Source: an uncultured Planctomycetales bacterium
GTDB taxonomy: Bacteria > Omnitrophota > Gorgyraeia > Zapsychrales > JANLHA01
Assembly: GCA_964374105.1 (NCBI GenBank)
Contig: CAYJXI010000003.1
Location: forward strand, 13,336 to 77,335
Direction of reading: 5' to 3'
Length of the DNA stretch: 64,000 nt
Under the pieces are notes generated by a model. The model did no database searches and was not told where the DNA came from. It worked only from the letters and a program-made list of their open reading frames with translations. The stretch's first letter is position 1; each line of letters opens with the position of its first letter. Below, piece after piece: positions 56,585 through 58,390 of the stretch. The position numbers and the translations under genes were made by a program.

Positions 56585-58390
56585 TCAATTTTCACATTGG
56601 GAAAACAAGGCGCTGACTTCACTCTTAAGATCAGGTTGAGTTTGAATGATAACCGTATAAAATTCCTTGGCCTTCTCACAGTCACCTTTCTTTTGGTACA
56701 ATTGGGCCATGCGGTAATAGGCATCTAAACTTTCCGGTTGATATTTGAGCACTCCCGCAAAGGCTTTGAGGGCATCATCGGGTAAATTCATTTGTTCATA
56801 GGTAGCCCCTAGATTAAATAAGGCATCCACATTAAAATGGCAAATCTTCAAGGATCTTAAATAGAATTTCTCTGCATCTTTGAGGTTACCTTCCATCAGA
56901 TAGGCATTGCCCAGATTATACAGTGTATTGGTATCAAAAGGGAAAATGGCCAGGGCTTTGTGATATTGCTCCTGGGCTTTTTGAAATTGATGATGTTTGG
57001 CATAAATGGGCCCGGATTTTGCATAGAGGAGAAATTGATAGGTTTTAGCATCAATCGGTTCGGGGGAAAATAAAACTGAATAAATGAAAATCAATAAAGC
57101 AGATAAAAGGACAGAGAAGAACTTACGTTGAACCAATTGGTCGGTTATCCAAGTTAAAAAGTAGGCCTCAAAGATAATAAAAAAAGGAAGAACGGTGACT
57201 CTATGCCGGGCATTAAGAAAGAAAATCAAGGTAAAGAGTAATTGACTGAAGATAAGGAGGATCGGGACGAAGGATTTTTTTTGATGTCGATAAGAAAGCC
57301 ATATTCCACCTAAGGACAAGGGGCAAATGATATAAAAGGGATTAAAGTCAAACTTAAATCGCCAGTCTCGTTGTAAGATCATATCCAGTTCCTCTGCCTT
57401 CTCGATGTCTTTAAAAAATAGATAGAATTTTTTGATTAAGAGCTTAAAGTACAAAGCCGGGTTTTCCAGGATAAAGCGAAAGGCCTTTTGTTGCCAGAAA
57501 TGAGAGACCTGATGAGCGGTTAAGGATTTTTCCAACATCGCTTCCGCAATGATTTTTTGATCTTCATCTTGACCGCGATGATCGGGGCGTAAGAATTCTG
57601 GATGTTCATAAATTCCCGAGGCAAAAGGGTTATTCCCCGTGTAAAAGCTTAACCCACTTTGCGCACTGATAAGAACCCAATCCCCTCCCACCCATTTGTT
57701 GCGAAATACGACTAAAGTAAGAATTAAAAAGACGCCGAGACTCAAAGGTACTAAGAATTGATAAGCCTTCTTTAGGAGATTCTTTTTATCTTTCGTTAAG
57801 AGATATCCAGAAAAAAGAAGATAGAATAGCAAAAGTTTTCCGTCTCCTAGCATCCCAAGTCCTAAAAGAATACCTAAGATGAAGACTTCCTTAAAATTAC
57901 GGGGATACTCAACTAAAAAATGGAATAAAGATAGAATGATAACCAAATTTAAAAAGATCAATAAGGTGACCGGCATCATCAACCAATCATAAAAAATTAA
58001 AGAATAGTTGAGGGAGCTTAAGAGGGAGGCCAAAACAGCAACTTTGGTTGAGAAAATCTTTTTGCAAAGATAATAAATGAGTAAGCAATTCAAGGAACCG
58101 AGGGCAAGATGAATGAAACGTAGCATGAAAAGATTGCCTAAGGTCAGACGCTTCAGGATGGCCAAAAAGTAGGGATAAAGCGGAAGGCCCCAGAATGTAT
58201 CTTTCCCTAGCCAGTCACCTTGAGCAATGTCTTGGGCCCAGGTTTGATAATAGACAACGTCACTGCTGGGATGATCGAAAAAAAAGTAATTGTTTTTTAA
58301 AAATAATAGATAGCCGAGCCGAGACCCAAGGGCACAGACAAAGAGCAAGACCAGGATCAGAACTTCTTTTTTTTCTTTCCAGGGATTCAT
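56585..58390 (-). CDS. GT-C-fold membrane glycosyltransferase (ArnT/PMT/TfpW-like) with C-terminal TPR repeats.
   Basis: A 601-aa protein. About 11 TM helices are followed by an acidic motif (FFFDHPSSD) in the first loop. The C-terminal 150 aa form 3-4 TPR repeats (YNLGNAYLMEGNLKDAEKFY..., FNLGATYEQMN..., YYRMAQLYQKKGDCEKAKEFY). The gene overlaps rsmE by 4 nt and lies directly upstream of a major pilin gene. Confidence 0.6.
   Translation of the reverse strand: MNPWKEKKEVLILVLLFVCALGSRLGYLLFLKNNYFFFDHPSSDVVYYQTWAQDIAQGDWLGKDTFWGLPLYPYFLAILKRLTLGNLFMLRFIHLALGSLNCLLIYYLCKKIFSTKVAVLASLLSSLNYSLIFYDWLMMPVTLLIFLNLVIILSLFHFLVEYPRNFKEVFILGILLGLGMLGDGKLLLFYLLFSGYLLTKDKKNLLKKAYQFLVPLSLGVFLILTLVVFRNKWVGGDWVLISAQSGLSFYTGNNPFASGIYEHPEFLRPDHRGQDEDQKIIAEAMLEKSLTAHQVSHFWQQKAFRFILENPALYFKLLIKKFYLFFKDIEKAEELDMILQRDWRFKFDFNPFYIICPLSLGGIWLSYRHQKKSFVPILLIFSQLLFTLIFFLNARHRVTVLPFFIIFEAYFLTWITDQLVQRKFFSVLLSALLIFIYSVLFSPEPIDAKTYQFLLYAKSGPIYAKHHQFQKAQEQYHKALAIFPFDTNTLYNLGNAYLMEGNLKDAEKFYLRSLKICHFNVDALFNLGATYEQMNLPDDALKAFAGVLKYQPESLDAYYRMAQLYQKKGDCEKAKEFYTVIIQTQPDLKSEVSALFSQCEN

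Follow-up and report, generated by a model that had tools for sequence, protein, structure and literature searches.

A conserved GT-C/TPR glycosyltransferase encoded at the 3' end of a type IV pilus gene cluster in Omnitrophota

We analysed a 64,000-nucleotide stretch of DNA from an uncultured bacterium of the Omnitrophota (contig CAYJXI010000003.1; the whole stretch is referred to as the window), focusing on the minus-strand gene at 56585-58390. It encodes a GT-C (PMT_2-type) glycosyltransferase of 601 amino acids with a C-terminal TPR domain, here called GT-TPR. Its fold, topology and conserved catalytic-type residues identify it as a GT-C_A enzyme. Its family is very large, and by synteny it is a core gene in Omnitrophota at the 3' end of a type-IV-pilus/pseudopilin cluster. 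Our favoured interpretation, which is tentative and to which we assign a probability of about 40%, is that GT-TPR may be a protein (pilin) O-glycosyltransferase working like the TMTC or TfpW enzymes. We infer the protein acceptor, most plausibly pilin, as well as the O-linkage and the lipid-linked donor.

Fold, topology and conserved residues of GT-TPR

The open reading frame has exactly the boundaries given in the original prediction. The catalytic membrane module comprises residues 1-441 (57068..58390, minus strand) and contains 11 transmembrane (TM) helices. It is followed by a periplasmic TPR domain of approximately four to five repeats (residues ∼448-597; 56600..57049, minus strand; Pfam TPR_1/2/11/16/19). 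Pfam PMT_2 (PF13231) matches residues 70-224 with 42.9 bits against a cut-off of 26.1, and TPR models match densely over residues ∼455-597. In a comparison with the PDB, the TPR domain matches the TPRs of OGT/SPINDLY and consensus TPR proteins. The membrane module has no significant match to PDB sequences, either as a single sequence or as a profile HMM, and an NCBIfam scan of the protein returned only sub-threshold, TPR-driven matches and no ArnT, lipid-A-modification or other named glycosyltransferase model.

An AlphaFold2 model of GT-TPR, built with 43 orthologues as input, has a mean pLDDT of 93.3 and a pTM of 0.91. Its 11 long hydrophobic helices lead into a TPR superhelix. The original prediction had named best structural matches to unrelated TPR membrane proteins, without a GT-C catalytic loop, as evidence that would count against a glycosyltransferase. 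Structure comparison gave a different result: the model has the GT-C_A fold, and the best structural template class is ArnT-like. Lys and Arg residues are enriched in the odd-numbered loops (before TM1, 3, 5, 7, 9 and 11), which, together with the odd number of TM helices, places the N-terminus in the cytoplasm and the TPR domain in the periplasm. The proposed GT-C glycosyltransferase with about 11 TM helices and a periplasmic TPR domain is thus borne out by the PMT_2 and TPR models, the predicted structure and the loop charge pattern. The TPR domain is presumed to be an acceptor-binding or partner-binding module.

To locate conserved positions, we used an alignment of 43 family sequences and a second set of 12 sequences for invariant columns. 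Asp44 lies in the first periplasmic loop (residues 32-86) within the motif SSDVVYY; it is kept in at least 90% of the 43 sequences and is invariant in the 12. The conserved set of this loop is Asp44, Tyr47, Tyr48 and Trp51, with the consensus PSSDVxYYQxWA...GLPLYPYFLA. In the alignment of 43, Asp135 and the motif LGD183GK185 are invariant or nearly so. The most conserved motif of the family, R268-P-x-H271-x-G-Q-D275-E-D277-Q, is situated in the 118-residue periplasmic loop between TM7 and TM8, and Arg397, directly before TM10, is invariant. Mean column identity among orthologues is 56% in the membrane module and 46% over the full length.

In GT-C enzymes of solved structure, an Asp in loop 1 and an Arg before TM10 serve catalysis and binding of the donor phosphate (PMC7801869). 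Asp44 and Arg397 are probably equivalent to these catalytic and phosphate-binding positions, an assignment made by topology and not by residue-level superposition. Likewise, His271/Asp275/Asp277 and Asp183/Lys185 may correspond to the catalytic, metal-binding and phosphate-binding positions described for GT-Cs.

The nearest proteins to GT-TPR are approximately 110 sequences of ∼600 residues with 43-55% identity, all of them PMT_2+TPR proteins; their named sources are metagenome-assembled genomes of Candidatus Omnitrophota. A profile restricted to the membrane module matched 29,224 of 1.84 billion representative proteins at E ≤ 1e-3, 14,602 at E ≤ 1e-10 and 4,971 at E ≤ 1e-30; the last threshold corresponds to ∼5000 clusters at 50% identity. 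The matches are mostly 550-960 residues long, which is room enough for a C-terminal extension. We found no characterised member, and none of the 10 distant members that we looked up carries a name. Judged by sequence, GT-TPR belongs to a very large, uncharacterised bacterial PMT_2+TPR family with a motif set of its own.

Genomic association with type IV pilin genes

We fetched 77 genomic loci encoding relatives of GT-TPR (individual loci are designated by L numbers); approximately 42 of them are Omnitrophota orthologues. In the window, the gene is preceded by rsmE, encoding a 16S rRNA methyltransferase (58387..59196, minus strand; Pfam Methyltrans_RNA and PUA_4). The rsmE stop codon overlaps the GT-TPR start codon (ATGA), and the pair is therefore probably co-transcribed and translationally coupled. 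Wherever upstream sequence is available for an orthologous locus, the pair is essentially always present, and recA follows GT-TPR after 30-500 bp in every orthologous locus with enough downstream sequence.

Of the 33 Omnitrophota loci whose upstream sequence extends for 5 kb or more, 27 have a pilin operon on the same strand upstream of the rsmE-GT-TPR pair, and in approximately 17 of those 27 the last minor-pilin gene ends directly before rsmE. Independent gene calls give the order T2SSF(PilC)-pilin-pilin-pilin-pilin-minor pilin-rsmE-GT-TPR, and in L001 and L027 both T2SSE (PilB) and T2SSF are also found upstream. The ancestral order is pilB-pilC-major pilin-minor pilins-rsmE-GT-TPR-recA-(htrA)-recX-alaS. 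Two loci contain additional copies. In L006 (9968-14424), two paralogues flank rsmE, the first of which follows the pilin operon directly, and in the complete genome OY759724.1 (L056) a second paralogue is unlinked, with neither pilin genes nor rsmE or recA beside it.

The window retains the prepilin operon as five genes (61254..63890, minus strand), four of which have N_methyl matches. A major-pilin-like gene comes first (63471-63890) and is followed by four minor-pilin-like genes at 62799-63221, 62246-62710, 61847-62227 and 61254-61838, all on the minus strand. Between this operon and rsmE, a tRNA-Ala gene (59307-59380, minus strand) and an HTTM/VKGC-like gene are inserted. The latter encodes a homologue of vitamin K-dependent gamma-carboxylase (59833-61200, minus strand; HTTM E-value 2e-54, VKGC lumenal domain E-value 1e-39). 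No HTTM homologue occupies this position in any of the 77 related loci, which suggests that the gene was inserted in this lineage alone. An Rfam scan of the window found two tRNAs only.

The original prediction placed GT-TPR directly upstream of a major pilin gene. A prepilin gene does start 240 bp downstream of GT-TPR. It encodes an extra major-pilin-like protein of 135 residues (55937..56344, minus strand) with N_methyl, TIGR02532 and ComP_DUS matches, a GTG start codon, an AGGAGG ribosome-binding site and the leader MQKNA. However, this arrangement occurs only here. No pilin gene is found between GT-TPR and recA in at least 30 orthologous loci, and two further close relatives agree; the adjacency is therefore a lineage-specific event. 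The extra copy is also diverged, with 78% amino acid identity to the pilin encoded at 63471-63890 and 74% nucleotide identity confined to the coding sequence. Given this divergence and the unrelated flanks, we rejected a recent duplication as its origin. At position -1 it has Ala instead of Gly, as do 2 of 31 family members, both extra paralogues; the other is L023:5548-5961, and the remaining 29 have Gly. The spacer between GT-TPR and this pilin gene contains a perfect sigma-70-type promoter sequence, TTGACA-17-TATAAT (56441..56469, minus strand), which is a 12/12 match to the consensus and nothing more, and which is predicted to give the pilin copy its own transcription start. As to the Ser/Thr/Gly-rich pilin C-terminus from which glycosylation had been argued, the quoted sequence is correct, but the Ser+Thr content of 22% is ordinary for a pilin family with a mean of 21%. 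We therefore rejected Ser/Thr richness as an argument for glycosylation. The link between GT-TPR and pilins exists nonetheless, and is stronger than the original prediction could see, owing to the conserved pilB-pilC-pilin cluster and to prepilin genes beside homologues in a second phylum.

Those distant homologues, retrieved by the family signature P[TSD]HxGQDxDQ, come from 18 Verrucomicrobiota loci, mostly of Chthoniobacterales, with 24-26% identity across residues ∼43-587. Upstream sequence is available for 17 of the loci, and 16 of these have one or two prepilin genes (122-124 residues, N_methyl) 30-700 bp upstream in divergent orientation. The density of open reading frames with a prepilin motif is 0.14 per kb within 3 kb of these homologues and 0.016 per kb beyond.

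The Verrucomicrobiota prepilin genes are followed on the same strand by a gene for a second GT-C-like+TPR protein, which forms cluster C7 (L060-L077; e.g., L064:4676-6757). C7 genes are also found in or beside pilin operons in seven Omnitrophota loci (L001:3144-4931, L020:3012-5033, L027:6226-8199, L032:1469-3235 and 5582-7600, L035:28-1998, L038:1018-2988, and L008:2280-4265). The window has no C7 gene; its end falls just past the major pilin gene. Thus, two different GT-C/TPR families co-localise with pilin genes in two phyla. The TMTC O-mannosyltransferases are defined by a DD (M1) and an SHKSYRP (M2) motif in loop 1 (PMC7801869). Loop 1 of C7, with the consensus WDDxxLxxxNPxIKSP...HYRPVQN, reproduces both, and C7 is more TfpW/TMTC-like than GT-TPR itself. 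A comparison of C7 with the GT-TPR family by hhalign gave a probability of 47% and an E-value of 2e-4, which is marginal.

Candidate acceptors and donors

Three types of GT-C+TPR enzyme have been characterised experimentally (TfpW, TMTC1-4 and TMEM260), and all of them act on proteins. TfpW, the D-arabinofuranosyltransferase for group IV pilins of Pseudomonas aeruginosa, has 646 residues, 11 TM helices and a periplasmic TPR domain, and its gene directly follows pilA (Villela et al., bioRxiv 10.1101/2020.04.19.049825). GT-TPR shares the 11 TM helices, an acidic residue in loop 1, the periplasmic C-terminal TPR domain and the genetic association with type IV pilin genes. TfpW homologues share a DDX motif in loop 1 and a YX6PFX7P motif in loop 4 (bioRxiv 10.1101/2020.04.19.049825), neither of which GT-TPR has. 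Loop 1 of GT-TPR reads HPSSD44VVYY, with a single Asp, and DDX is absent from all 43 family members. In GT-TPR, D[DE] dipeptides occur at residues 275 and 538 only, and 10 of the 43 orthologues have one within residues 31-70. YX6PFX7P is found in none of the 43, nor is a relaxed YX6PX5-8P in the membrane module. GT-TPR is also shorter (601 residues), and the gene order differs: it follows a pilin operon with four minor-pilin genes and rsmE in between, and the adjacent pilin gene of the window lies downstream with its own promoter. Of the proposed match to TfpW, the TM and TPR layout therefore holds, and so does an acidic residue in loop 1, although not as the DDX motif. Compared with TfpW by its published description only, GT-TPR is TfpW/TMTC-like in its predicted architecture and should not be filed as a member of the TfpW family.

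TMTC1-4, the eukaryotic cadherin O-mannosyltransferases of the GT105 type in the GT-C/PMT clan, resemble GT-TPR in having a PMT_2-type module with 11 TM helices and C-terminal extracytoplasmic TPRs, a long, catalytically important TM7-TM8 loop and an Arg before TM10; they also provide the paradigm of a protein acceptor. GT-TPR differs in lacking the DD and SHKSYRP motifs and a match to Pfam DUF1736 (TM7-TM8), and in being bacterial and periplasmic, whereas the TMTCs reside in the endoplasmic reticulum.

On the favoured interpretation, GT-TPR would be catalytically competent, face the periplasm and take a monosaccharide from a polyprenyl-phosphate donor. Lys185 and Arg397 would bind the donor phosphate, His271, Asp275 and Asp277 would form a metal or donor site, and Asp44 would act as the general base or position the acceptor. 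The sugar would be transferred to Ser/Thr of a protein held by the TPR domain. The best candidates for the acceptor would be the neighbouring pilins, and in related genomes the TMTC-like C7 enzyme might take part as well. A bolder and doubtful extension of this idea is that Omnitrophota and Verrucomicrobiota carry a hitherto undescribed two-enzyme pilin-glycosylation module, in which C7 and the SSDVxYY/HxGQDEDQ family might act in sequence, one initiating on Ser/Thr and the other extending. Such a module might be a bacterial counterpart, and possibly the evolutionary source, of TMTC O-mannosylation.

Several observations weigh against pilin glycosylation by GT-TPR. The rsmE-GT-TPR-recA-recX-alaS region is syntenic throughout, so pilin proximity could be inherited gene order; rsmE separates the pilin genes from GT-TPR, and the upstream pilin operon is missing in L012, L019, L029, L041 and L056. 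The Verrucomicrobiota loci come from one order and are closely related, and thus amount to about one independent observation. Thirteen other distant homologues lie beside gap-pgk-tpiA with no pilin gene nearby, and four of five sampled contexts from the wider family have no pilin gene, the fifth having a T2SSG-like gene 4 kb away. TPR domains can serve complex assembly instead of acceptor binding, and the Ser/Thr content of the pilin, as noted above, is not unusual.

Some of these points feed the strongest alternative, which we consider possible but less probable than a protein acceptor. GT-TPR could modify an envelope glycan or lipid (lipopolysaccharide/lipid A, a surface polysaccharide or a glycolipid) from a polyprenyl-phosphate donor, as ArnT/GtrC-type enzymes do, with the TPR domain serving complex assembly and the pilin proximity being inherited synteny. 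The gene is indeed a core gene among the housekeeping genes rsmE, recA, recX and alaS, and many members of the wider family have no pilin context. The Verrucomicrobiota homologue is found in islands with many other GT-Cs (DUF2079, YfhO, GT87 and PMT-like) and GT2 genes resembling polyprenyl-phosphate-sugar synthases, which look like glycan-building loci. With ArnT (undecaprenyl-phosphate-L-Ara4N:lipid A transferase, GT83), GT-TPR has in common the PMT_2 model, an ArnT-like structure and an expected polyprenyl-phosphate monosaccharide donor. This similarity is structural only: GT-TPR matches no ArnT or lipid-A-modification model of NCBIfam, only TPR models, and no ArnT chain in the PDB by phmmer or profile search. 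ArnT has no TPR domain, and GT-TPR has no arn operon context. GT-Cs known to act on glycans or lipids have either carbohydrate-binding modules or no additional domain, rather than TPRs (PMC11127046), whereas every characterised GT-C+TPR enzyme is protein-directed, and the pilin proximity recurs in two phyla.

The original prediction was more specific. It proposed that GT-TPR is a TfpW-type pilin arabino- or ribofuranosyltransferase, fed by a UbiA-family enzyme at 11.5-12.4 kb of the window and decorating Ser/Thr of the adjacent pilin. The UbiA-family gene (11536..12408, minus strand) does encode a polyprenyl-phosphate phosphoribosyltransferase of the DPPR-synthase type, with 257 bits against a cut-off of 234 for NF008977, the decaprenyl-phosphate phosphoribosyltransferase model; its homologues are widespread in Omnitrophota. 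Together with the TfpW-like architecture (11 TM helices, acidic loop-1 residue, periplasmic TPR domain) and the real pilin association, this speaks for the proposal. Its role as donor-maker for GT-TPR finds no such backing. A distance of 44 kb separates the UbiA gene from GT-TPR. UbiA heads a polysaccharide cluster with rml-type genes, methyltransferases, a GT9 heptosyltransferase and a Wzx-like Polysacc_synt protein, and its immediate upstream neighbour is a gene for a DUF2079 protein (12432..14402, minus strand), which our analysis shows to have a GT-C fold and a C-terminal beta-sandwich resembling the carbohydrate-binding domain of Wzt. The same pairing is found in L078, L079 and L080, that is, in all four Omnitrophota genomes examined, and one of the three other genomes has two tandem DUF2079 copies beside UbiA.

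Co-occurrence was assessed by a proxy in which homologues on contigs of identical size are counted as being on the same contig. By this measure, UbiA and DUF2079 homologues coincide on approximately 20 contigs, many of them shorter than 20 kb, compared with only three contigs, none below 94 kb, for UbiA and GT-TPR homologues. One observation leaves the original proposal a low probability. In L081, a locus of an unrelated genome (523-8265; GCA_040961635.1), two PMT_2+TPR members flank a UbiA gene whose product is 41% identical to that of the window, which is the only linkage of the proposed kind that we observed. The parsimonious user of the UbiA product is the DUF2079 protein, acting on a glycan, and the two likely form a module separate from GT-TPR; nothing ties the donor of GT-TPR specifically to a UbiA-made pentofuranose.

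Pilin glycosylation by TfpW needs DPPR synthase, DprE1 and DprE2 (bioRxiv 10.1101/2020.04.19.049825). Among the scanned open reading frames of at least 110 residues in the window, there is no DprE1/DprE2 or GtrA-like gene, and hence no pointer to arabinofuranose. With the TfpW motifs absent from all 43 family members, UbiA paired elsewhere and the pilin adjacency that motivated the proposal unique to this genome, pilin pentofuranosylation is unsupported, though not refuted, and we regard it as improbable.

A precedent for the UbiA-DUF2079 arrangement is the three-component pentofuranosylation system (PPPRS, flippase and GT-C), in which the GT-C is encoded beside PPPRS, carries a carbohydrate-binding module and is glycan-directed (Kelly et al. 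2024, PMC11127046). The window does contain a PPPRS-type UbiA enzyme and GT-C enzymes, but the description fits the DUF2079 protein, not GT-TPR 44 kb away. The DUF2079-UbiA pair is therefore a candidate polysaccharide pentofuranosylation system of this type. Our search found no paper on DUF2079. An rve-type integrase gene (2230-3015, plus strand) and a DDE transposase gene (8373-9293, minus strand) lie in or next to the polysaccharide biosynthesis cluster, which suggests recent rearrangement of the glycan locus.

Finally, the main role of GT-TPR might be non-catalytic: through its TPR domain it might serve pilus or envelope assembly as a scaffold or chaperone, like PilF/PilW/Tgl, with the GT-C module as a degenerate anchor. 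Its gene is close to the pilus cluster, but this role is highly improbable, given that orthologues of 40-55% identity keep Asp44, Asp135, Asp183, Lys185, Arg268, His271, Asp277 and Arg397 with few or no exceptions, that the membrane module is better conserved than the full-length protein and that all TPR matches in NCBIfam fall far below the family cut-offs.

Two further genes of the window may be mentioned. In the product of one, a bactofilin domain is joined to an HTH_17 DNA-binding domain (27172-27687, minus strand); the other encodes a stand-alone PilZ-domain protein (35851-36276, plus strand), a rare plus-strand gene in a window that is nearly all minus.

Significance for Omnitrophota and for the GT-C/TPR family

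The enzyme class of GT-TPR is unsurprising, and its function is predicted. GT-C+TPR protein glycosyltransferases are already known from TfpW, TMTC and TMEM260; the GT-TPR family is distinct from these, with its own motifs. That it is associated with pilus clusters in Omnitrophota and Verrucomicrobiota seems not to have been reported before, as a full-text literature search returned the TfpW preprint only. Both the two-enzyme pilin-linked module and the DUF2079/UbiA pairing are concrete and testable. The latter, a GT-C with a carbohydrate-binding-like domain paired with a phosphoribosyltransferase, offers a testable function for a DUF family.

Omnitrophota are uncultivated, ultra-small bacteria, many of which are thought to be predatory or parasitic, and their type IV pili have been proposed to serve host attachment (PMC10066038). 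Pilin glycosylation in Pseudomonas affects pilus stability, host recognition and phage evasion, and the same properties would be at stake for a conserved glycosyltransferase linked to the pilus cluster. Since the sole characterised architectural relatives of the family are TfpW and the eukaryotic protein O-mannosyltransferases TMTC and TMEM260, knowledge of its acceptor would give access to a new class of protein glycosylation in bacteria.

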